Part shown: positions 9,534 through 50,866 of the stretch, in pieces
Position numbering within the stretch: position 1 is the stretch's first letter
How the letters are laid out: each line of letters opens with the position of its first letter
Assembly: GCA_035548175.1 (NCBI GenBank)
Contig: DASZTO010000052.1
Span: 24,128-88,127 of the forward strand
Source of the DNA: Phycisphaerae bacterium
GTDB lineage: Bacteria; Planctomycetota; Phycisphaerae; WQYP01
Length of the DNA stretch: 64,000 nt
Reading direction: 5' to 3'
Translations under genes and position numbers: made by a program
Notes under the pieces: generated by a model
What the model saw: the letters and a program-made list of their open reading frames with translations, nothing else
The model's database searches: none
What the model was told of the DNA's origin: nothing

Positions 9534-9792
9534 GTAAATGGCCACGAAAGCCACGAAAAACACGAAACGACGCGGAAAGTTTCCACAAATGCCCACAAAT
9601 CCGCACAAATCCCCGCCCCTTGCAGCGCGCACCCTTCGCGCACGAAGTATTTAAAAATCTCTATGTAATGCATGAAAAGCTCAGACCGGTATCGCCGTTC
9701 GACGCCCAACGCATTCGTGCCGATTTGTGCAAATTTGTGGACCCGTCCCCTCCCCCCGTTTCGTGCTTTTCGTGTCTTTCGTGGCCATTTAC
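9534..9792. repeat. 259-bp palindromic element with 35-bp terminal inverted repeats (CACGAAA family)
   Basis: 9534-9568 GTAAATGGCCACGAAAGCCACGAAAAACACGAAAC matches the reverse complement of 9758-9792 with 2 mismatches; inner CACAAAT decamer arms; lies between convergent genes. Confidence 0.85.
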
Positions 9793-14448: not shown

Positions 14449-14586
14449 ATCGGCGTCCATCCGCGTCCATCGGCGCCCACTCCCCTTTCCATTCAATTCC
14501 ACCACCATTCGTGCAAATTCGTGTGCATTCGTGGACAATTCCCGTCGTCGCCTTTCGTGCGTTTCGTGCCTTTCGTGGCCATTTAC
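14449..14586. repeat. Cluster of short repeats: ATC(G/C)GCGTCC x3, ATTCGTG x3, TTTCGTG x3 ending GGCCATTTAC
   Basis: Right-arm copy of the 9534-9792 element plus a decamer triplet, between convergent genes. Confidence 0.8.
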
Positions 14587-30548: not shown

Positions 30549-30657
30549 AACGCGGAGGGCGCTGAGAACGCGGAGGGCGCGGAGGGACGACGATGGACCA
30601 CCGCACCCCCACGATAACGACGCAAAATGGCCACGAAAGGCACGAAAAACACGAAAG
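30549..30657. repeat. 9-mer repeat clusters: (AA/GG)CGC(G/T)GAG x4 and a CACGAAA-family arm
   Basis: 30549-30584 AACGCGGAG GGCGCTGAG AACGCGGAG GGCGCGGAG; 30625-30657 AAATGGCCACGAAAGGCACGAAAAACACGAAAG. Confidence 0.8.
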
Positions 30658-32784: not shown

Positions 32785-32819
32785 GTAAATGGCCACGAAA
32801 GACACGGAAGGCACGAAAG
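32785..32819. repeat. CACGAAA-family arm
   Basis: GTAAATGGCCACGAAAGACACGGAAGGCACGAAAG. Confidence 0.8.
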
Positions 32820-36164: not shown

Positions 36165-36710
36165 ATGACGAATGCTTCGTGCAAATTGAGGCAAGTTCGG
36201 CGGGCGTGCGGGGGAGGGTTCACGGCATTTGAGGCGTTGATAGCGGCGGCGATATTGGCGTTTCTGACGGCGACGGTGAGCACGGCGCTGATGGCGGGGC
36301 GTGCGCAGAGCCGGGTGGCGCGGGACACGGTGGGGGCGTCGATGCTGGGGCAGGCGTTGATGGAGGAGGTGATGCGGCTGCCGGTGACGGATCCGCAGGG
36401 GTACAAGACGATGGGGCCGGACCCGGGGGAGACGCGTGCGACGTTCAACGCGGTGGATGATTACGACGGCTATACGGATGGTCCCGGGACGGTGGCGGAC
36501 GGGCACGGGAATTACACGTTGATCACGGATCTTGCGGGGAATGCGTATCCGACGGCGTACCAGGGATTCATTCGGAAGGTGTCGGTGCAGGGGGTGAGCT
36601 ACACGCCGACGGGGTGGACGCGGACGATCAGCGGGATGCTGGTGACGGTGACGGTGTCGAGCGCGGATGGGCGGACGCTGATAACGCTGCAGAGGGTGGC
36701 ATGCAATTGA
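36165..36710 (+). CDS. Prepilin-type N-terminal cleavage/methylation protein
   Basis: GFTAFEALIAAAIL followed by a hydrophobic helix; VDDYDGY. Confidence 0.8.
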   Translation: MTNASCKLRQVRRACGGGFTAFEALIAAAILAFLTATVSTALMAGRAQSRVARDTVGASMLGQALMEEVMRLPVTDPQGYKTMGPDPGETRATFNAVDDYDGYTDGPGTVADGHGNYTLITDLAGNAYPTAYQGFIRKVSVQGVSYTPTGWTRTISGMLVTVTVSSADGRTLITLQRVACN

Positions 36711-37252
36711 GGGCGAAGAGTCGGCGGTCGGTGGGCGATGGGGGAGAAGGAGGTGTCGCTGCGCGGCGCCGGGGATTCACGCTGTTTGAGCTGGTGCTGG
36801 TGGTGCTGGTGGTGGGGATTTGCGCGGCGACGCTGTTGCCGGCGGTGGGGAACCTGCGGTCGACGAGCCTGCGGCAGGCGGCGAACATGGTGGCGGCGGA
36901 TGCGGATTTCTGCATGAGCGAATGCGTGAACCGTCCGACGGCGCCGCGGAAGCTGGTGTTCAACGTGGGTGGGAATTCGTATCAGATGGTGGATGCGACG
37001 ACGAACGCGGTGATTGCGCATCCGGCGGACGGTCTGCCGTACATCAACGATTTTTCGACGGGGCGGAACGTGCAGCTGAGCGGGGTGCGGCTGGTGAGCG
37101 TGCTGGTGGGGGGGATCAGCGCGACGGCGCTGACGTACACGGCGTATGGGAAGCCGGTGCTGACGTCGGACATGGTGATCACGCTGAGCTATGAGGGGCA
37201 GACGATGGCGGTGACGGTGAAGGCTGGGACGGGGGATGTGGGGATTCAGTAG
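36701..37252 (+). CDS. Prepilin-type protein (GspH/FimT-like)
   Basis: RRGFTLFELVLVVLVVGI; overlaps the previous gene. Confidence 0.8.
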   Translation: MQLRAKSRRSVGDGGEGGVAARRRGFTLFELVLVVLVVGICAATLLPAVGNLRSTSLRQAANMVAADADFCMSECVNRPTAPRKLVFNVGGNSYQMVDATTNAVIAHPADGLPYINDFSTGRNVQLSGVRLVSVLVGGISATALTYTAYGKPVLTSDMVITLSYEGQTMAVTVKAGTGDVGIQ

Positions 37253-37262
37253 GGGGGGGAGT

Positions 37263-37364
37263 AGTCAGTAGTCAGAAGTCAGAAGTCAGAAGTCAGAAGT
37301 CAGAAGTCAGAAGGGGCGGCGGGCGCGGCGTCTGCTGACTACTGGCTACCGTCTTCTGGCTACT
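37263..37364. repeat. Heptamer tandem array (AGTCAGA x6 plus AGTCAGT) with inverted degenerate arm
   Basis: 37263-37311 tandem copies; 37331-37364 reverse complement reads AGCCAGA AGACGGT AGCCAGT AGTCAGC. Confidence 0.9.
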
Positions 37365-37367
37365 CGC

Positions 37368-37520
37368 AAAAAAAATGGGCTCGCCAGGGGAGGCAATCCT
37401 GACGAGCCCCGATCCAGGGCAGATCGGTGTGCCGGAGACGCTGGAGAGAGAGATGCCTCGCGTGTCCGGCGTAGTTTTGTAGTTGCCGACCGCGTAAGTG
37501 ATCGGCGAAGGACAGTTCAG
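37368..37520 (-). ncRNA. Candidate small RNA: four consecutive hairpins ending in an intrinsic terminator
   Basis: Stems 37485-37506, 37431-37470, 37409-37427, 37377-37409; 8-U tail on the - strand; no - strand gene upstream that could use the terminator. Confidence 0.5.
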
Positions 37521-37690
37521 ATGTACGATTGAGGGGAGGCGCGGGCAAAAAGATTTGTAAAGATTTTTACGGGGTGGGAGGATTGGCGCTGCAAATGGAA
37601 AAAGAATGCGTAAGATGATGCCTTTTACGAGACGTTGCGGCGCGCGGCGCCGGACGCGATCGGGGTCCGTGGCATGGGTGCAGATCGACG

Positions 37691-39622
37691 ATGGACTTGA
37701 TCAAGGCGTTAAAGTCGTGGGGAATCCAGGATTCGGCGGAAGTGTACAACATCCGCAACTGGGGCAAGGGGTACTTCGGGATCAATGCGGAAGGGAACGT
37801 GTGCGTGCATCCGGACCGACAGGAGGGGCGGTCGATCGATTTGAAGCGGCTGGTGGATGAACTGATTCTGCGGGGCATCAACCTGCCGGTGCTGGTGCGG
37901 TTCACGGACATTCTGAAGCACCGGGTGGCGGAGCTGCACGAGGCGTTCAGGAACGCGATCGCGGAGAACGGCTATGGCGGCACGTATGCGTGCGTGTATC
38001 CGATCAAGGTGAACCAGCAGCGGCACGTGGTGGAGGAGATCGTGGAGTTCGGGAAGCCGTATGGATTCGGCTTGGAGGCGGGGAGCAAGCCGGAATTGCT
38101 GGCGGTGCTGGCGCTGGCGAACAACGGCGATGCGCCGATCATCTGCAACGGCTTCAAGGATGATGAGTTCATTGAGACGGTGATCCTGGCGCAGAAGCTG
38201 GGCAAGAAGGTGATTCCGGTGGTGGAGAAATTCACCGAGCTGGAGCTGATCGTGAAGTATGCGGAGAAGCATGGGGTGCGGCCGCTGATCGGGGTGCGGG
38301 TGAAGCTGGCGACCAAGGGGAGCGGGCGGTGGGAGAGTTCGGGTGGCGCGCGGAGCAAGTTCGGGCTGTTCGTGGCGGAGGTGCTCAAGGCGCTGGAATA
38401 TCTCAAGGCGCGGAACATGCAGGACTGCCTGAAGCTGATGCATTTTCACCTGGGCAGCCAGATCACGAACATTCGCACGGTGAAGACGGCGCTCAATGAA
38501 GCGGCGCGGATTTACGCGGAGCTGGCGCGGGCGGGGGCGGGGATGGAGTATCTGGATGTCGGCGGCGGGCTGGGGGTGGATTACGACGGCTCGCAGACGA
38601 ATTTCGATTCGAGCATCAATTATTCGCTGCAGGAATACGCCAGCGACGTGGTGTTCCGCATCAAGAGCGTGTGCGATGAGGCGGGGGTGAAGCATCCGCA
38701 CATCATCAGCGAGAGCGGACGCGCGATGGTGGCGTATCACAGCGTGCTGGTGTTCAACGTGCTGGGGGTGAGCGGGTTTGATCTGTTCGACATTCCGGCG
38801 GGGCTGCCGGAGGGCGAGGAGTTGCCGCAGCCGGTGCGGGACCTGTTCGACAGTTACCGGGAGATCACGAAGAAGAATTTCCAGGAGGTGTATCACGATG
38901 CGATCCAGCAGCGGGACGAATCGCTGAATCTGTTCAATCTCGGGTACCTGAGTCTGGAATTGCGCAGCCTGACGGAGAAACTGTTCTGGGGCGTGTGCGG
39001 GAAGATTCTGAAGATTCTCAAGGACAGCGATTACGTGGGGGACGATTTTGAGAATCTGGAGGCGCAGCTGTCGGACACGTATTTCTGCAATTTTTCGCTG
39101 TTCCAGAGCATGCCGGACGCGTGGGCGATCAAGCAGCTTTTCCCGGTGATGCCGATCCACCGGTTGAAGGAGGAGCCGACGCGGCGGGGGGTTCTGGCGG
39201 ACATCACGTGCGATTCGGATGGGAAGATCGACGCGTTCATCGACCTGCGCGATGTGAAGAAGACGCTGGAGCTGCACGAGTTTGACGGGCGGGAGTATTA
39301 CATCGGGGCGTTTCTGGTGGGGGCGTACCAGGAAATTCTGGGCGACCTGCACAACCTGCTGGGGGACACGAATGCGGTGCATGTGACGATGCAGCCGGAT
39401 GGCAGCCCGAGCATCGATGAGGTCGTGCGCGGGGACACGGTGCGCGAGGTGCTCAGCTATGTGCAGTTCAGCAGCGATGCGCTGGAAGGGAAATTGCGGA
39501 AGCAGATCGAGGGGGCGGTGCGCGAGAAGCGGATCACGCTGGAGGAGGGGGCGCAGTTGATGCGGTATTACGAGGATGGGATGCGGGGGTATACGTATCT
39601 GGAGGAGCCCAGCGCGTATTGA
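37691..39622 (+). CDS. speA: Biosynthetic arginine decarboxylase
   Basis: YPIKVNQQR, GLEAGSKPEL, HFHLGSQI, DVGGGLGVDYDGS, TCDSDG, GAYQEILGDLHNL. Confidence 0.97.
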   Translation: MDLIKALKSWGIQDSAEVYNIRNWGKGYFGINAEGNVCVHPDRQEGRSIDLKRLVDELILRGINLPVLVRFTDILKHRVAELHEAFRNAIAENGYGGTYACVYPIKVNQQRHVVEEIVEFGKPYGFGLEAGSKPELLAVLALANNGDAPIICNGFKDDEFIETVILAQKLGKKVIPVVEKFTELELIVKYAEKHGVRPLIGVRVKLATKGSGRWESSGGARSKFGLFVAEVLKALEYLKARNMQDCLKLMHFHLGSQITNIRTVKTALNEAARIYAELARAGAGMEYLDVGGGLGVDYDGSQTNFDSSINYSLQEYASDVVFRIKSVCDEAGVKHPHIISESGRAMVAYHSVLVFNVLGVSGFDLFDIPAGLPEGEELPQPVRDLFDSYREITKKNFQEVYHDAIQQRDESLNLFNLGYLSLELRSLTEKLFWGVCGKILKILKDSDYVGDDFENLEAQLSDTYFCNFSLFQSMPDAWAIKQLFPVMPIHRLKEEPTRRGVLADITCDSDGKIDAFIDLRDVKKTLELHEFDGREYYIGAFLVGAYQEILGDLHNLLGDTNAVHVTMQPDGSPSIDEVVRGDTVREVLSYVQFSSDALEGKLRKQIEGAVREKRITLEEGAQLMRYYEDGMRGYTYLEEPSAY

Positions 39623-39722
39623 TGGAGGGGGCGCGAGGTGGGGCGCCGGGGAAGTTCTCGCCTGCGGTGCGGGGGGGGGGTAGGATGTGGGCGGGCAGTC
39701 AGGCGGGAGCGAGGAAGTCGCG

Positions 39723-42700
39723 ATGGAACAGGTGGTGGCGGGATTTATCTGCTTTGGCGTGTTTCTGTGCCTGGCGGCGCTGGCGTTTTCGATTGCGGCG
39801 CTGACGTGGCTGGACCGGCTGAAGAAGGAACTGCGGGGAGCGCGCAAGCAGACGGCATTGCTGGAATCGCAGGTTGCGTGGCTGGTGGAGCAGTTCAAGG
39901 CGCAGGCGAAGTCGGGAGCGCGGGAATCGCCGACGGGGCGGGCTGTGGAAAGCCCCGCAGTCGCCGAGGAGCCGGCGACGGCCGCGCCAGCGCCCGCACC
40001 GCCGCCGCCGGTCCAGCCGCGCTCCGATGGGAAGGACGAGGCGTTTGCGCGGCTCACGAAGCGACTGCCCGAGCTGGCGCCCGGCCCGGAGCCCGAGTTG
40101 CCGCCGCTGGAGCCGGAACCGTCGGTCACGATGGCGGGCGCATTGCCGATGGGGGAACCGGCAGCACCGGCGCAAGCCAAAGCCGCTCGGGCGCCGCAGC
40201 CTCGCGTTCCGCTCGAACAGCGCCTGATCCAGGCGGCGGTCGCGATCGGGGGCGTGGCGCTGGCGCTGGCGGGAATTTTCCTTGTGAAGGTGGCGTTCGA
40301 TCGCAATTACCTCAATCCGTTCGTGCGCGTGGTGCTGGGGACGGCGTTCGGTCTGGCGCTGCTGGGGGCGGGCGTGTGGCGGCGCAAAAAGGAGGAGGGC
40401 ATCGCGCAGGCGCTCTCGGCGGCGGGCGTGGCGGATCTGTTTGCCTGCTTTCTGGCGGCGACGAACCTCTATCACCTGGTTTCGCCGGTCACCGGGTTCG
40501 TGCTGCTGGCGGCGGCGACGGCGCTGGCGGTGGTGCTGTCGCTGGCGCAGGGGCCATTTGTGGCGCTATTGGGATTGGTGGGCGGATTTCTCACGCCGGC
40601 GCTGATTCGCACGGATCATCCCTCGGCGTTGTCGCTGTTTGGCTATCTGTTTCTGCTGGAGGTGGGGCTCGTGCTGGTGACGCGGGCGCGCCGCTGGGCG
40701 TGGCTGGCGGCGCTGACGGTGCTGGCGTCGCAGGCGTGGGTCGTGCTGTGGCTGGCGACGCAGCCTTGGAATCCCGCCGACGGCCAGGTGCTGGGGGTTT
40801 TCGTGCTGGGTTCGGCGATGACGATGCTGGCGGCGTCACTGGCGGATGAGGCCTGGGACCAGGACGCGGCGTGGTCGCAGGCGCTTTGCTACCTGGCGCT
40901 GGTGATGGGCCTGGCGCTTTCGGGGGCGCTGCTGGCGCGTTCCGATTTCTCCAACATGGAGTGGGTGTTCCTGGGCCTGCTGTCAGCGGCATGCGTGGCG
41001 CTGGCGGCGCTGCGATCGGCGTATGAGCCGCTGCCCTGGGCGGCCGCGGCGTTGGTGTGGGCGATGCTCGCCTGGAGCGGGCGGCCCTGGGAAGGGGCGG
41101 CGCCGGCCGACCTTTGGCGCGTTGCGGTGATCCTCGCGCTCTTCGGGATCGGGTTTGCGGGCGCGGCTTATGGGCTGGCGTGGCGCAGCAAGACGCCGGA
41201 GCGCTCGGCCTGCCTCTCGGCGTGCTGCGCGGTGGGCTACACGCTGCTCGCGTATTGGGTGCTTGGGCGCTCTCCGCGCAGCGACGTATGGGCGTGGCTG
41301 CCGGTGGCCGTGGCGGCGGCCTATGCGGGGCTGGGCGTCCCCGTGTATCTGCGGCGGCAGCGAGCCGGCTGGGACGATTTTCTGGAAACGATGGTTGTGT
41401 GCATCCTGACGCTGCCGCTGGCGGCGCCGCCGATGGCGTTCGGGCGCGCGACGCTGACGGCGATGTGGTCGGTGCTGGTGCCGGTGAGCGTGCTGGCGGG
41501 GCGTCTGCTTCGCCTGCGGTTGCCATGGATCATGGGCGCCCTGGTGACCACGCTGGTCGGCATGCGCCTGGTGATCAACCCGATGGTGCTGGAATATGGC
41601 ACGGGGCCGAGCTTGTGGTGGAACCCGCTGATTTGGGGATACGTGCCTGCGGCGATCGCGCTGGCGGTCGCGGTCTGGCTGACCGAGCTTCTGCGGCCGC
41701 AGTCGAAGGAACCCGATCCCGGCGACATTTCCGGTTATTTCGAGCTAGTGGCCGGGCTTGTCGTGCTGTCCTTCGCCACGCTCTTCACGCATCGCGTGTT
41801 CAACCCGGCGGCGCTGGATACCGCGGAGATAGACGTCGGCGAACGCGCCGCGCTGGGCAACGTGTGGGTGTTCCTGGGGATCGCGCTGACGCTGCTGGGG
41901 GTGTGGTTGCGGCCTCTTCGGGGAAGCACGACGGCCACGCTGGGGAAGGCGGCGCTCGTCGCGGCGATGTCGTTTGTCGTCGTCATCGAAGCGCTGTGGC
42001 TCAACCCGCTGATCACCACCGACTACCTGGGCCGCGGATGGGCGAACCTGCTGTGGCCGCTCTTCGGCTTGCCGGCGGCGGGGCTGGGCGGCATGGCGCT
42101 GTGGCTGCGCAAGCGCGGAACCGAAGCGCCGGCGCTGATGACTCTTTGCGGCACCGCATCGCTGGTGTTGCTCTTCGTGCTGACGAACCTGCTGATCCGT
42201 CACGCCTTTCAGGGACCGGTGCTGGACATCACCGGCGGACATGGCGCCGAGGCGCGGATCGCGGAACGTTCGACGTATCCGCTCGCGGGGATGCTGCTTG
42301 GGATGGCGCTGCTGTTGTGCGGCCGAGCATGGCGCGTGCTGGGATTGTCGATGGCGGGGCAGCTTTTCGCGCTGGCGGGCACGGCGTGCGTGGTGTTGGT
42401 GGCGGTGCTGACGTTCAATCCGCTGTTCAACAGCGAGCCGGTTGGGGCGGGCCGCCTGATGAACTGGCTGCTTTACGCTTACGGGGCGCCGGCGCTGGTG
42501 GCGGGGGCGCTGGGCGTGTGGCTCTATCACTCCGCGGAGGGAGGCGAAGCGGGGCATCCGGATCGAGTGCTTGGCCGGGTGCATGGCATCGCCGCGCTGC
42601 TGTTTCTGTTCGTGCTGGTGTCGCTGGAGGTGCGGCATGGCTTCCAGGGGCCGGTGCTGAGCGGCCCCGGGCCGAGCTCCGCGGAAATGTACGCCTATTC

Positions 42701-42998
42701 GGCGGCCTGGGCGATCTTCGGAACGCTCCTGCTGCTGGGCGGAATCCTGACGCACAGCGCGGTTCTGCGCTGGGCCTCCCTGGCGGCGATGCTGCTGACG
42801 ATGCTGAAGGTGTTCCTCCTGGATGTGGCCAGCCTGTCAGACCTGTTGAGGGTGCTTTCGCTGCTGGGCCTGGGCGTTTCGCTGATTCTGCTGGCGCTGC
42901 TGTATCACTACTTCGTCTTTCGCCGGGGTGCGGAGGCGGCGCGGAAGGACGCCGGCGGTGTTCCGGGGCCGGCGGCCTCGGAAGCAACCGCTCTATAG
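39723..42998 (+). CDS. DUF2339 family large membrane protein
   Basis: N-terminal TM, coiled coil and Pro-rich linker; IGGVALALAGIFLVK; many TMs; YSAAW and KVFLLDV near the C-terminus. Confidence 0.85.
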   Translation: MEQVVAGFICFGVFLCLAALAFSIAALTWLDRLKKELRGARKQTALLESQVAWLVEQFKAQAKSGARESPTGRAVESPAVAEEPATAAPAPAPPPPVQPRSDGKDEAFARLTKRLPELAPGPEPELPPLEPEPSVTMAGALPMGEPAAPAQAKAARAPQPRVPLEQRLIQAAVAIGGVALALAGIFLVKVAFDRNYLNPFVRVVLGTAFGLALLGAGVWRRKKEEGIAQALSAAGVADLFACFLAATNLYHLVSPVTGFVLLAAATALAVVLSLAQGPFVALLGLVGGFLTPALIRTDHPSALSLFGYLFLLEVGLVLVTRARRWAWLAALTVLASQAWVVLWLATQPWNPADGQVLGVFVLGSAMTMLAASLADEAWDQDAAWSQALCYLALVMGLALSGALLARSDFSNMEWVFLGLLSAACVALAALRSAYEPLPWAAAALVWAMLAWSGRPWEGAAPADLWRVAVILALFGIGFAGAAYGLAWRSKTPERSACLSACCAVGYTLLAYWVLGRSPRSDVWAWLPVAVAAAYAGLGVPVYLRRQRAGWDDFLETMVVCILTLPLAAPPMAFGRATLTAMWSVLVPVSVLAGRLLRLRLPWIMGALVTTLVGMRLVINPMVLEYGTGPSLWWNPLIWGYVPAAIALAVAVWLTELLRPQSKEPDPGDISGYFELVAGLVVLSFATLFTHRVFNPAALDTAEIDVGERAALGNVWVFLGIALTLLGVWLRPLRGSTTATLGKAALVAAMSFVVVIEALWLNPLITTDYLGRGWANLLWPLFGLPAAGLGGMALWLRKRGTEAPALMTLCGTASLVLLFVLTNLLIRHAFQGPVLDITGGHGAEARIAERSTYPLAGMLLGMALLLCGRAWRVLGLSMAGQLFALAGTACVVLVAVLTFNPLFNSEPVGAGRLMNWLLYAYGAPALVAGALGVWLYHSAEGGEAGHPDRVLGRVHGIAALLFLFVLVSLEVRHGFQGPVLSGPGPSSAEMYAYSAAWAIFGTLLLLGGILTHSAVLRWASLAAMLLTMLKVFLLDVASLSDLLRVLSLLGLGVSLILLALLYHYFVFRRGAEAARKDAGGVPGPAASEATAL

Positions 42999-47791: not shown

Positions 47792-50290
47792 ATGATCACG
47801 AGGCCCGGTGCGAGGGAATTGGAAACCGCGGCGCGCGCGGGTACAACGCGGGACATGACCGTTCCTCCGCCATCGCCGCCCGCGGCAACTCTGTACGCAA
47901 CGGTAGCCGTGGATCAACCGCTGGACGCGACGTACACGTATGTGGTGCCCGCCGCGCTGCGGCGCGAGGTGCGCGCGGGCAGCCGGGTGGTGGCGCCGCT
48001 GGGGCGGGGGAATCGGCTGACGCAGGCGACGGTGCTGTCGTTGTCGAGCGAAGCGCCGGATTTCGCGCGTGCGCCGGCGGCGGAGCAGGGGGCCGAGGAG
48101 CTGCTTTTCTCGGCGTCCGGGGAGGTTACGGGGCCGGTGAAGGCGCTGGCGGAGGTGCTGCGCGATGTGCCTGCGGTGCCGGGCGATCTGCTGGAGCTGG
48201 CGAAGTGGATCAGCGTGTATTACTGCGCGCCGATCGGCATGACGCTCTCGACGATGGTGCCGGCGGCGGTGAAGAAGGCGGCGCGGCTGCCGATGAAAGT
48301 GACGGTGTCGCTGGCGGCGGTGGAGAAAACGGTCGAGGAGGCGCTTGAAGGGCTGAAAGTTTCCGCGAAGAGCAAAGCAGCGTTTGGGGCGCTGCACGGG
48401 TACCTGCGGGAGGGGCCGCGCGCCGAGCTGGATGCGATGGCGCACGCGGAGGTCGGGCGGCCGATGTTGAAGCGGTTGATGGCGCTGGGGCTGATCAAGG
48501 CGGAGCGGGAGGTGAAGTTGCCGGAGGCGGCGGTGGTGGGCGCGGATATCGGGGGAAGCGCGGCGGTGCTGGAGCTGAGCGCGGATCAGCAGCGGGCGAT
48601 GAAGGAGATCGACGGGCTGCTGGACGCCGGCGGGTTCGCGGTGCGGCTGATTCACGGCGTGACCGGATCGGGCAAGACGGAGCTGTACATCCGGGCGATC
48701 GAGCGGGTGGTGGCGGCGGGGAAGCGGGCGATCGTGCTGGTGCCGGAGATCTCGCTGACGCCGCAGACGGTGCGGCGGTTCACGGCGCGCTTCGAGCGCG
48801 TGGCGGTGCTGCATTCGGGGATGAAAGACGCGGAGCGGCATCAGCACTGGCATGCGATCGCGGGGGGCTGGGCGCAGGTGGTGGTGGGGGCGCGCTCGGC
48901 GATTTTTGCGCCGGCGGCGGACATCGGACTGATCGTGGTGGATGAGGAGCATGATGGTTCTTACAAGCAGGATAATCTGCCCAAGTATCACGGGCGGGAC
49001 GTGGCGATCCGCCGGGCGCAGATGCTCAAGGTGCCGATCCTGCTGGGGTCGGCGACGCCGGCGCTGGAGAGCTGGCACAATGCGCACTCGCATGAGAAGT
49101 GGGGGCTGATTTCGTTGCGGACGCGGCCGCTGGGCACGCGCATGCCGCGGGTGATCGTGGTGGATATGAAGGCGCAGCACAAGGAGCGGCGCGGGCTGCA
49201 CATCCTTTCGACGGTGCTGGAGCATCATCTGAAGCAGACACTGGCGCAGAAGAAGCAGGCGATTTTTCTGCTGAACCGCCGCGGGTATGCGCATTACGTG
49301 ATGTGCCCGCGCTGCGAGTGGGTGCTGATGTGCGAGAATTGTGATGCGACGATGGTGGTGCATCGGGAAAAGCCGAAAGACGAAAGGGCAAAGACGAAAG
49401 AGGAAAGGGGCAGGATCAGGGGAACGGTGCAGTGTCATTATTGTCTGACGTCGATGGTGCTGCCGGAGCGGTGTCCGTTGTGCCAGGCGCTGCTGACGCA
49501 TCTGGGGCAGGGCACGCAGCGGGCGGAGGATGAGCTGTTGCGGAAGTTTCCGGAGCTTGGGGGCGGGCGGCTGAAGCGGATGGATTCGGATTCGATGCAT
49601 CATGCGGGGCAGTATCAGGAAGCGCTGGATGCGTTCGGTCGTGGGGAGATCGATCTGTTGATCGGGACGCAGATGATCGCGAAGGGGCTGGACTTTCCGA
49701 ACGTGCAGCTCGTGGGGGTGCTGAACGCGGATTTGGCGATGACGATTCCGGATTTTCGGGCGGCGGAGCGGACGTTTCAGTTGGTGTGCCAGGTCGCGGG
49801 GCGGAGCGGGCGGGCGATGGGGGGCGGCGGCGGGGTGGAGCGGGGGAACGTGGTGGTGCAGACGTTTCAGCCGCAGGAGCCGGCGATCGCGGCGGCATGT
49901 GCGCACGATTACCTGGGCTTCGTGGAGACGGAGTTGCCGCACCGGCTGGAGTGGGGCTATCCGCCGTATGGCCGGCTGGTGCGGATGGTGCTGGCGCACA
50001 AGAATTATGCGGCGGTGCGCGAGGCTGGGGAGGGGCTGGCGCGGCTGATGACGGCGTTGACGGCGGGGTCCGCGGATAAGGCTGGGTTGCCGGTGCGGGT
50101 GCAGGGGCCGTTGCCGCCGCCGATGGAACGGCTGGTGGAACTGTACCGTGTGGAGCTGCTGCTGTTCGCCAAGACGGCGGGTCCATTGCAGCGGCTGCTC
50201 GGGGCGCTGCGGGCGCGCGGCGCGCTGTCGGCGGCGGCGTGGGGCGGCGTGAGCGTGAGCGTGGATGTGGATCCGGTTCATATGATGTGA
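47792..50290 (+). CDS. priA: Primosomal protein N' (replication restart helicase)
   Basis: HGVTGSGKTE, LVPEISLT, DEEHDGSYKQ, SATP, CxxC Zn motifs, GTQMIAKGLDF, QVAGRSGR; start could be 47855. Confidence 0.95.
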   Translation: MITRPGARELETAARAGTTRDMTVPPPSPPAATLYATVAVDQPLDATYTYVVPAALRREVRAGSRVVAPLGRGNRLTQATVLSLSSEAPDFARAPAAEQGAEELLFSASGEVTGPVKALAEVLRDVPAVPGDLLELAKWISVYYCAPIGMTLSTMVPAAVKKAARLPMKVTVSLAAVEKTVEEALEGLKVSAKSKAAFGALHGYLREGPRAELDAMAHAEVGRPMLKRLMALGLIKAEREVKLPEAAVVGADIGGSAAVLELSADQQRAMKEIDGLLDAGGFAVRLIHGVTGSGKTELYIRAIERVVAAGKRAIVLVPEISLTPQTVRRFTARFERVAVLHSGMKDAERHQHWHAIAGGWAQVVVGARSAIFAPAADIGLIVVDEEHDGSYKQDNLPKYHGRDVAIRRAQMLKVPILLGSATPALESWHNAHSHEKWGLISLRTRPLGTRMPRVIVVDMKAQHKERRGLHILSTVLEHHLKQTLAQKKQAIFLLNRRGYAHYVMCPRCEWVLMCENCDATMVVHREKPKDERAKTKEERGRIRGTVQCHYCLTSMVLPERCPLCQALLTHLGQGTQRAEDELLRKFPELGGGRLKRMDSDSMHHAGQYQEALDAFGRGEIDLLIGTQMIAKGLDFPNVQLVGVLNADLAMTIPDFRAAERTFQLVCQVAGRSGRAMGGGGGVERGNVVVQTFQPQEPAIAAACAHDYLGFVETELPHRLEWGYPPYGRLVRMVLAHKNYAAVREAGEGLARLMTALTAGSADKAGLPVRVQGPLPPPMERLVELYRVELLLFAKTAGPLQRLLGALRARGALSAAAWGGVSVSVDVDPVHMM
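49367..49408 (+). repeat. Six heptamers (NNAAAGR) in frame inside priA
   Basis: gaaaagc cgaaaga cgaaagg gcaaaga cgaaaga ggaaagg = 42 bp, about 14 charged residues. Confidence 0.75.
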
Positions 50291-50344
50291 AAAGAACAAA
50301 GAGGAAAGACGGAAGACCAAAGGCGAAAGGCGAAGGACGAAAGG
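50289..50344. repeat. About eight degenerate NNAAAGR heptamers after priA
   Basis: acaaaga ggaaaga cggaaga ccaaagg cgaaagg cgaagga cgaaagg. Confidence 0.8.
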
Positions 50345-50838: not shown

Positions 50839-50866
50839 AGTCAGTAGTCAGTAGACGGAAATCAGA
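50839..50866. repeat. AGTCAGT heptamer cluster between convergent genes
   Basis: agtcagt agtcagt agacgga aatcaga. Confidence 0.7.

Follow-up and report, generated by a model that had tools for sequence, protein, structure and literature searches.

A candidate small RNA gene with an invariant 3′ module in uncultured Phycisphaerae

Introduction

Bacterial small RNAs (sRNAs) often act through short exposed motifs. RsaE, RNAIII and other Rsa RNAs of Firmicutes use unpaired C-rich motifs to bind Shine-Dalgarno (SD) sequences and block initiation (PMC2790875), and terminator loops can also drive regulation (PMC11979758). U tails of at least seven residues are typical of Hfq-binding sRNAs (PMC5558911). 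Planctomycetota have yielded very few known regulatory RNAs: for the whole PVC group, 8 annotated sRNAs were listed in a 2022 survey, compared with 345 for Proteobacteria (PMC9029176), and the searchable literature yielded no description of an sRNA from uncultured Phycisphaerae. Here we analysed a 64,000-nucleotide (nt) stretch of a Phycisphaerae bacterium genome (assembly GCA_035548175.1, contig DASZTO010000052.1, positions 24,128 to 88,127 of the forward strand; hereafter the window). Our subject is an intergenic element next to speA, at 37520..37368 on the minus strand, for which a first-pass annotation made from the letters alone had proposed a four-hairpin sRNA. We found that this element has seven homologues and that its 3′ part is invariant among all copies. 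It is probably a functional, independently transcribed small RNA. Taken as a whole, it is best explained, in our judgement with fair though far from full confidence, as an sRNA gene of ~150 nt (150-210 nt in relatives) with its own promoter and terminator, whose product would regulate by base-pairing.

The closest described systems resemble the element in part. RsaE/RoxS (PMC2790875, PMC6158497) share with it a 5′ hairpin, a classical terminator, a size of 100-200 nt and conserved unpaired C-rich loops set among helices that vary; in RsaE/RoxS and related RNAs such loops pair with SD or G-rich regions and so prevent initiation. However, there is no sequence or Rfam relationship to these RNAs, the phylum here is Planctomycetota, and the likeness lies in the proposed mechanism only; one of the conserved C-rich elements here is the terminator loop itself, and target pairing is a proposal. 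Hfq-dependent enterobacterial RNAs such as SgrS and RyhB, with a terminator hairpin and a U tail of seven or more (PMC5558911), have in common with the element a free-standing gene, a GC-rich terminator hairpin with its U tail (6-8 U here) and an A/C-rich single strand upstream of it, but their seed is usually 5′-proximal, whereas the most conserved part here is 3′-proximal. In SdsR, RseX and ArrS, terminator loops regulate fepA (PMC11979758). The terminator loop of the present element is likewise under selection, being invariant, which suggests that it does more than terminate. Those loops, however, depend on Hfq and RNase E and are reported to act probably without base-pairing (PMC11979758).

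Two further classes share its general build. CsrB, RsmY and RsmZ carry GGA motifs at hairpin tops (compare CAGGAU and CUGGAU here) and end in a Rho-independent terminator, but the element holds two or three such motifs, partly paired, and matches no family of this type. Terminator-type riboswitches and leaders also combine a promoter, a structured RNA and a strong terminator, and a co-oriented thrC gene follows the element in half of the loci. In contrast to such leaders, the downstream gene is not constant, thrC has a promoter signal of its own, and there is no aptamer-like core. The element is best described as a new RNA family outside Rfam, conventional in its sRNA build and a member of none of the families compared. 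Its comparative signature is clear, consisting of a promoter footprint, a 38-nt identical core and replaceable 5′ domains. With this signature, and with its detectability in environmental RNA of many studies, it offers a practical entry point to RNA regulation in this lineage, and the copies assembled here could directly seed the alignment of a new RNA family.

Anatomy of the element

We read the element on the minus strand of window 37520..37368 and folded it with ViennaRNA, taking the minimum free energy (MFE) structure and z scores against 200 dinucleotide shuffles. The minus strand of 37516..37368 adopted four hairpins at -66 kcal/mol (z = -4.65), and 0 of 200 shuffles was as stable; the complementary strand of 37368..37516 gave z = -2.47. 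The four hairpins, the linker and the terminator described in the first-pass annotation were all recovered, including the 12-bp terminator stem and its 8 U, and a terminator scan also located the terminator on the minus strand. The parts of the element are as follows.

37548..37543, minus strand: -35-like TTGCCC, preceded by an A/T-rich stretch
37520..37530, minus strand: -10-like AATCGTACATC, containing TACATC at 37525..37520
37368..37516, minus strand: predicted transcript of ~149 nt, its 5′ end placed from the -10 position only and its 3′ end within the U-run
37506..37485, minus strand: hairpin 1, GCCGAUC/GGUCGGC in the MFE fold, belonging to the variable 5′ domain
37484..37471, minus strand: A/C-rich linker AACUACAAAACUAC, unpaired in the centroid fold
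37470..37431, minus strand: hairpin 2, a GC-rich stem with one unpaired C and a CU-rich apex
37459..37455, minus strand: GAGGC box inside hairpin 2, with its pyrimidine-rich partner at 37453..37443
37426..37410, minus strand: hairpin 3, CGAUCU/GGAUCG with loop GCCCU in the MFE fold (UGCCCUG on the stem as first annotated)
37385..37422, minus strand: 38-nt block CUGCCCUGGAUCGGGGCUCGUCAGGAUUGCCUCCCCUG, the same in 8/8 copies and continuing into the terminator
37409..37377, minus strand: intrinsic terminator stem-loop with a 12-bp stem and a 9-nt loop, AUUGCCUCC
37375..37368, minus strand: U8, following a single A after the terminator stem; the whole terminator unit spans 37368..37409

The two promoter-like hexamers, TTGCCC and TACATC, are separated by a 17-nt spacer (37548..37520, minus strand), and the pattern TTGCC-N18-TANATC occurred once in the 64 kb, with 0.07 occurrences expected. 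TTGCCC had been likened to the tRNA-Val promoter, and the resemblance holds: the tRNA genes of this organism carry upstream TTGCCT-N17-TATGGT (tRNA-Val) and TTGTCT-N16-TAAGAT.

We then considered whether the element could be a known RNA or a coding sequence. A scan of the whole window against Rfam 15 at gathering thresholds passed only two tRNAs. CrfA was the best match of a permissive local scan, but it scored 19.3 bits, below its threshold of 38 (E = 0.38), and covered the terminator only; the homologous loci L001, L081, L086 and L087 gave nothing at E <= 1. The earlier statement that no Rfam family is recognisable, made before any such scan, thus stands. Translations in all frames revealed no open reading frame (ORF) or frame common to the copies, as stops and frame changes differ among them; between the window and L001 the indels measure 6, 2 and 5 nt, not all multiples of three. 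Overlapping minus-strand ORFs of 62 and 114 amino acids (aa) have no Pfam match and are not conserved. The shorter one covers the whole element.

37360..37548, minus strand: 62-aa ORF spanning the element, without a Pfam match, interrupted or frame-shifted in homologues

It had also been observed that no minus-strand coding sequence lies upstream to account for the terminator. We found no credible one either, and Pfam places speA on the plus strand.

Homologues and distribution

Relatives of speA and matches in sequencing runs point to an uncultured Phycisphaerales bacterium of soil metagenomes as the source of the window. We identified seven homologues of the element (L001, L081/L082, L086, L087, L089, L092 and L093), giving eight copies with that of the window. 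Among 80 speA loci of species-representative genomes, only L001, whose speA is 93% identical to the window's, has a homologous intergenic region; in L002-L011 of the same set, other genes lie upstream of speA and the element is absent. Closer speA proteins from a large protein collection led to the copies in L081/L082, L086, L087, L089 and L092. At L002, L083, L085 and L090, where speA is of similar identity, no RNA lies beside it. In the speA tree, carriers and non-carriers are interspersed inside one clade, indicating an RNA ancestral to the clade that some lines have lost or relocated. The last copy, L093, was found through a search with thrC (threonine synthase). Here the RNA is flanked by thrC and by a gene for the E2 acyltransferase of a 2-oxoacid dehydrogenase, and speA is not in the vicinity. 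The sample that gave L093 also gave L083, where speA has no RNA beside it. The labels "orphan" and "divergent from speA" in the first-pass annotation are thus superseded, since seven homologues exist and one of them has no speA as neighbour. On the loci recovered, the RNA family does not extend beyond a narrow lineage of Phycisphaerae, uncultured inhabitants of soil, peat and wetland. Its probable ancestral gene order was speA, the RNA pointing away from speA, and thrC in the orientation of the RNA.

A profile built from the copies matched the window once and, in ~750 kb of related loci, found only the syntenic copies. The element is therefore not a dispersed repeat, and the many scattered copies that would have marked it as one were not seen. 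A scan of metagenome contigs with the pattern CCTGGATCGGGG-N8-GGATTGCCTCC returned a single match, which we rejected as chance: it lies inside an acyl-CoA dehydrogenase gene (L088, 1874-1904; an acyl-CoA dehydrogenase-like ORF with the protein motif ...LDRGRIGIASQAVG...), and illustrates that 23 specified bases do not preclude a chance match.

Conservation of the promoter-like signals and the 3′ module

We assessed conservation from alignments A2-A4, A2 holding seven copies with which L093 was compared in addition. The 38-nt block CUGCCCUGGAUCGGGGCUCGUCAGGAUUGCCUCCCCUG was identical in 8/8 copies, while the speA proteins beside the six speA-linked homologues are 88-93% identical to that of the window. 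The promoter-like signals were similarly kept. TTGCC is present in 7/7 copies of A2 (TTGCAC in L093) and ATCGTA(C/A)ATC is unchanged in all copies, while the 17-nt spacer between them is unrelated in sequence from copy to copy. In 8/8 copies, the spacing and orientation of the hexamers with respect to the terminator are fixed as well. Kept hexamers around a diverged spacer are the classic footprint of a promoter, in this case a predicted one pointing towards the terminator.

The 5′ part proved far more variable, and a conserved set of four hairpins was not borne out. The copies of the window, L001 and L089 measure ~150-165 nt and have one 5′ hairpin, while the five long copies measure ~190-210 nt and have two different 5′ hairpins. 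The sequence of hairpin 1 is not conserved; one or two other 5′ hairpins occupy its place in the homologues. An unpaired A/C-rich stretch, loosely GAAnYCAnC, was found at the position of the linker in every homologue. In hairpin 2, GAGGC is kept in 7/7 copies of A2 and reads GAGGU in L093. When this segment was folded alone, each copy formed a local hairpin, a GC-rich helix around GAGG(C/U), in which the G-run of the box finds its partner in pyrimidine-rich sequence close by. Arm sequences differ: GCCGGACACGC / GCGUCUCCGGC in the window, GCGGCGCGUUCGG / CCGAACGCGCCGC in L089, GCCGCCGCCGG / CCGGCGCCGGC in L087, and UGCCGG/CCGGCA in L081 versus CGCCGG/CCGGCG in the other long copies. MAFFT leaves these arms unaligned, which rules out column-wise covariation counts, so we swapped arms between copies instead. 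Native pairs gave -14.4 and chimeras -10.6 kcal/mol, a modest preference.

Toward the 3′ end the pattern changes. The loop and 3′ arm of hairpin 3 are invariant, while its 5′ arm is lost in L001 and weakened in L092. Since the loop and 3′ arm remain unchanged even where their partner is gone, what is read in this stretch seems to be the sequence as well as the helix. The terminator has a 12-bp GC-rich stem and a U-run of 6-8 in all copies. Outside the block its stem varies at two positions only, A or G opposite U, which makes U-A or U-G pairs on the minus strand and C-A mismatches on the plus strand.

The first-pass annotation had singled out an exposed CU-rich loop, AUCUCUCUCUCCA, as the part that would pair with ribosome-binding sites. 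Its sequence is not conserved: the window has CAUCUCUCU, L001 has a C-run, L089 has CCCUUU, and some long copies lack it as such. In each copy it is the pyrimidine-rich partner of the GGAGG-like box and partly paired. Conservation among the C-rich elements falls instead on the loop of hairpin 3 (GCCCU) and that of the terminator (AUUGCCUCC), both invariant and both unpaired in the predicted folds of 7/8 copies. In the eighth, L092, the block pairs otherwise in the MFE fold of the whole transcript.

Evidence for transcription

Across many studies of soil, peat, wetland, moss and decaying wood, 24 listed metatranscriptome runs contain words of the invariant block, and contigs carrying the block were confirmed in 8/8 runs examined. 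The contigs of these eight runs match the window only at 37366..37431, the invariant module, and run into unrelated flanks beyond it, so they derive from relatives. Two contigs, X29 and X27, which come from different studies and have different flanks, both end 143-144 nt upstream of the block, near the predicted 5′ end of the long variants. The region is very probably transcribed in nature. We assign the presumed transcript to the minus strand from the orientation of the promoter-like signals, the U-run, the U-A/U-G variation in the terminator stem and the slightly better z of the sense strand, which was the more negative in 6/7 copies.

In Logan contigs of runs X32 and X37, an Illumina adapter abuts the block, at window 37376 and 37426 (+21). 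Such junctions mark the ends of short fragments, here at the terminator base and ~21 nt upstream of the block. In one contig, the adapter abutting 37376 is a read-1 adapter. A comparison of RNA depth between speA and the block was uninformative, as at 80% likeness speA draws homologues from unrelated bacteria.

Proposed mode of action

We propose that transcription on the minus strand would start at the element's own promoter and end at its strong Rho-independent terminator. The functional core would be the 3′ module, made up of the hairpin-3 loop, the flanking GGAUCGGGG, the terminator hairpin with loop AUUGCCUCC and the U tail; the GAGGC box of hairpin 2 and the A/C-rich linker would also belong to it, while the replaceable 5′ hairpins probably serve stability. 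Acting in trans, the RNA would use its exposed C-rich loops, and perhaps its linker, to pair with mRNAs at G-rich or SD-like regions, and this pairing would block translation initiation or alter mRNA stability. We infer, then, the same kind of mechanism as was first suggested, seated on different nucleotides. That the C-rich loops act by pairing with ribosome-binding regions is a tentative proposal, possible but less than probable in our estimate.

Several observations weigh against the element being a regulatory sRNA with its own promoter. The analysed part of the genome comprises 64 kb, from which no mRNA target could be named, and a search of the analysed sequence for Hfq and CsrA found neither, which is uninformative for the lineage. 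A simple sigma-70 consensus scan called no promoter at TTGCCC/TACATC, and the -10-like TACATC, already described as weak, lacks the canonical final T. The RNA evidence consists of unstranded assembled contigs of relatives at a depth of 2-36, with DNA carry-over possible. Most of these contigs extend 34-135 nt past the U-run, so termination may be leaky or the other strand transcribed. Folding energies separate the strands poorly, also when the same helices are evaluated on both. Hairpin 3 is broken in L001. In the arm-swap comparison of hairpin 2, the native pairs ranked 1, 4, 1, 4, 2, 1, 8 and 2 of 8, which is weak support. The homologues upstream of speA to which the first-pass annotation had looked for covariation were found, but covariation itself is thin, with eight sequences whose best-conserved helices are invariant.

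Neighbouring genes and alternative explanations

The genes on either side of the element in the window are read on the plus strand.

37691..39622, plus strand: speA, biosynthetic arginine decarboxylase (Pfam Orn_Arg_deC_N, Arg_decarb_HB and Arg_decarbox_C), the divergent neighbour
37608..37616, plus strand: -10-like GCGTAAGAT of speA, conserved with small variations in relatives
36614..37252, plus strand: prepilin-type gene (N-terminal methylation motif), convergent with the candidate

The gene that follows the terminator differs between loci. It is convergent in the window, L001, L087 and L089 (4/8) and co-oriented in the others, being thrC in L086, L092 and L093 and, in L081, a gene for an unknown 254-aa protein followed by thrC. 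The co-oriented loci could suggest a cis-acting, riboswitch-like thrC leader or attenuator, in which the terminator is the expression platform, the GGGGAGGC box of hairpin 2 pairs alternatively with the terminator loop, and the window copy is a relic from which thrC has moved away. Consistent with such a leader, every copy has 6-11 nt of complementarity between GGGGAGGC(AAU) and the terminator loop AUUGCCUCCCC, and the RNA contigs often cross the U-run. An alternative or tertiary pairing of this box with the loop is possible, and because both partners are invariant, covariation cannot test it. The alternative pairing, however, overlaps the 3′ arm of the terminator by 2 nt only and so would not prevent the terminator from forming. 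Copies followed by a convergent gene still share the identical 3′ module. A conserved aptamer-type core of several helices is absent, the 5′ domain can be exchanged, and no Rfam riboswitch or leader family was matched. Moreover, thrC carries a conserved -10-like signal of its own 6-9 nt before its ATG.

thrC -10-like GCTACAAT regions: L081 1629-1660, L086 166-195, L092 1932-1960, L093 3470-3500, L094 3470-3500

L094 keeps this signal although no RNA lies upstream there, as does L081 despite the intervening gene, so thrC is independent of read-through from the RNA promoter. Its position implies that thrC mRNA in these Phycisphaerae would be leaderless or near-leaderless. We consider a thrC leader unlikely. 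The variable downstream gene, the copy in L093 without speA and the separate thrC signal instead point to an autonomous small RNA gene. The stand-alone unit originally envisaged is retained on these and other grounds, namely the kept hexamers with their diverged spacer, the terminator, the lack of a conserved ORF and of an Rfam match, the single copy and the words of the invariant block in metatranscriptomes.

The 3′ module could alternatively be a protein-binding site, making the transcript a sequestering RNA of the CsrB/RsmY type or the ligand of another protein. CAGGA(U/A/C)G is the repeat of CsrB, and CUGGAUC and CAGGAUUG of the element resemble CsrA-type GGA motifs; in the invariant module, two GGA motifs stand where stem and loop meet. 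Loss or weakening of the 5′ arm of hairpin 3 (L001, L092) leaves CUGCCCUGGAUCGGGG unchanged, so that its sequence seems to be read and not its helix alone. Known sponges, however, hold many GGA motifs in loops, whereas the element has two or three, and no Rfam CsrB/Rsm family was matched. The lack of a CsrA or Hfq gene in the analysed sequence, mentioned above, says little here. We regard protein sequestration as improbable, to about the same degree as the leader.

A third alternative dispenses with a functional RNA. The element would then be an insulator or terminator combined with conserved DNA sites, such as operators of speA, and the RNA contigs would be read-through or DNA carry-over. The unstranded contigs, many of which cross the terminator, are compatible with this view, as are the non-canonical -10 and the usual location of the element in the upstream region of speA. 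The 38 nt identical in all copies nevertheless include the terminator loop and go far beyond what termination needs. The geometry of hexamers and terminator is fixed in 8/8 copies, while the distance from the RNA promoter to speA ranges from ~130 to 375 nt, and the unit persists in L093 without speA. This explanation, too, has little probability in our view.

One variant of the small RNA gene deserves mention although we rate it as more doubtful than any of the preceding alternatives. GGGGAGGC mimics an SD sequence and the loop AUUGCCUCCCC, which contains CCUCC, an anti-SD sequence; being mutually complementary, they could form a two-conformation toggle acting on the translation machinery or on many SD-bearing mRNAs. 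If true, the RNA would be no ordinary mRNA-pairing sRNA but a global regulator of translation specific to this lineage and active in soils, peat and wetlands alike. Finally, although a 62-aa ORF spans the element and a tandem heptamer array lies just downstream, a small-protein gene, a dispersed repeat or a mobile-element fragment is highly improbable and was rejected, as the ORF has no Pfam match and is broken by stops or frame-shifted in homologues, no ORF is shared, the window holds a single copy, ~750 kb of related loci hold only syntenic ones, and the metagenome pattern scan gave one chance match only. Each of the rival explanations is less likely than a small RNA gene.

On the other side of the element, we compared the region preceding speA in the window, L001, L081, L086, L087, L089, L092 and L090. 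A conserved (G)CGTAAGAT -10-like element lies ~75-90 nt before the start codon, with GCTGCA ~16 nt further upstream. In the window its counterpart GCGTAAGAT sits between the RNA promoter and the start codon of speA; relatives that lack the RNA have a similar element too. (G)CGTAAGAT is probably the promoter of speA, arranged back-to-back with that of the RNA. Directly downstream of speA, at 39687-42998 on the plus strand, lies a gene for a predicted membrane protein of 1103 aa with three DUF2339 stretches.

The speA leader was also considered as a pairing partner of the RNA. Its apparent GATCGGGG repeat (inverted repeat I7) was rejected, being same-sense, not complementary and not conserved in L001; here GAUCGGGGUCCGU of the leader (37658-37670, plus strand) nearly repeats GAUCGGGGCUCGU of the RNA (37402-37414), probably by chance. 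Unconstrained duplex prediction between the RNA and the leader produced only meaningless full-length duplexes.

Short repeats near and beyond the element

Between the terminator and the convergent gene, the window carries a tandem heptamer, (AGTCAGA)x7.3, at 37263-37313. A partial inverted copy of this array at 37332-37349 could form a long hairpin with it. At the corresponding place, heptamers of other sequence (TGGCTAC, CCACTGA) are repeated in the RNA contigs of relatives. Metatranscriptome depth over the AGTCAGA array was very high and came from many unrelated contigs, so the array behaves like a common simple repeat. Other arrays in the window are AAAGACG x5.6 and x6.6 (49369-49407 and 50298-50343), AGTCAGT x2.3 (50839-50854), CACGAAAGA x2.9, found twice (30632-30657 and 32794-32819), and TTTCGTGCC or its rotation, also found twice (9759-9783 and 14545-14577). 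The recurrence of units at distant sites suggests a genome-specific class of intergenic short repeats.

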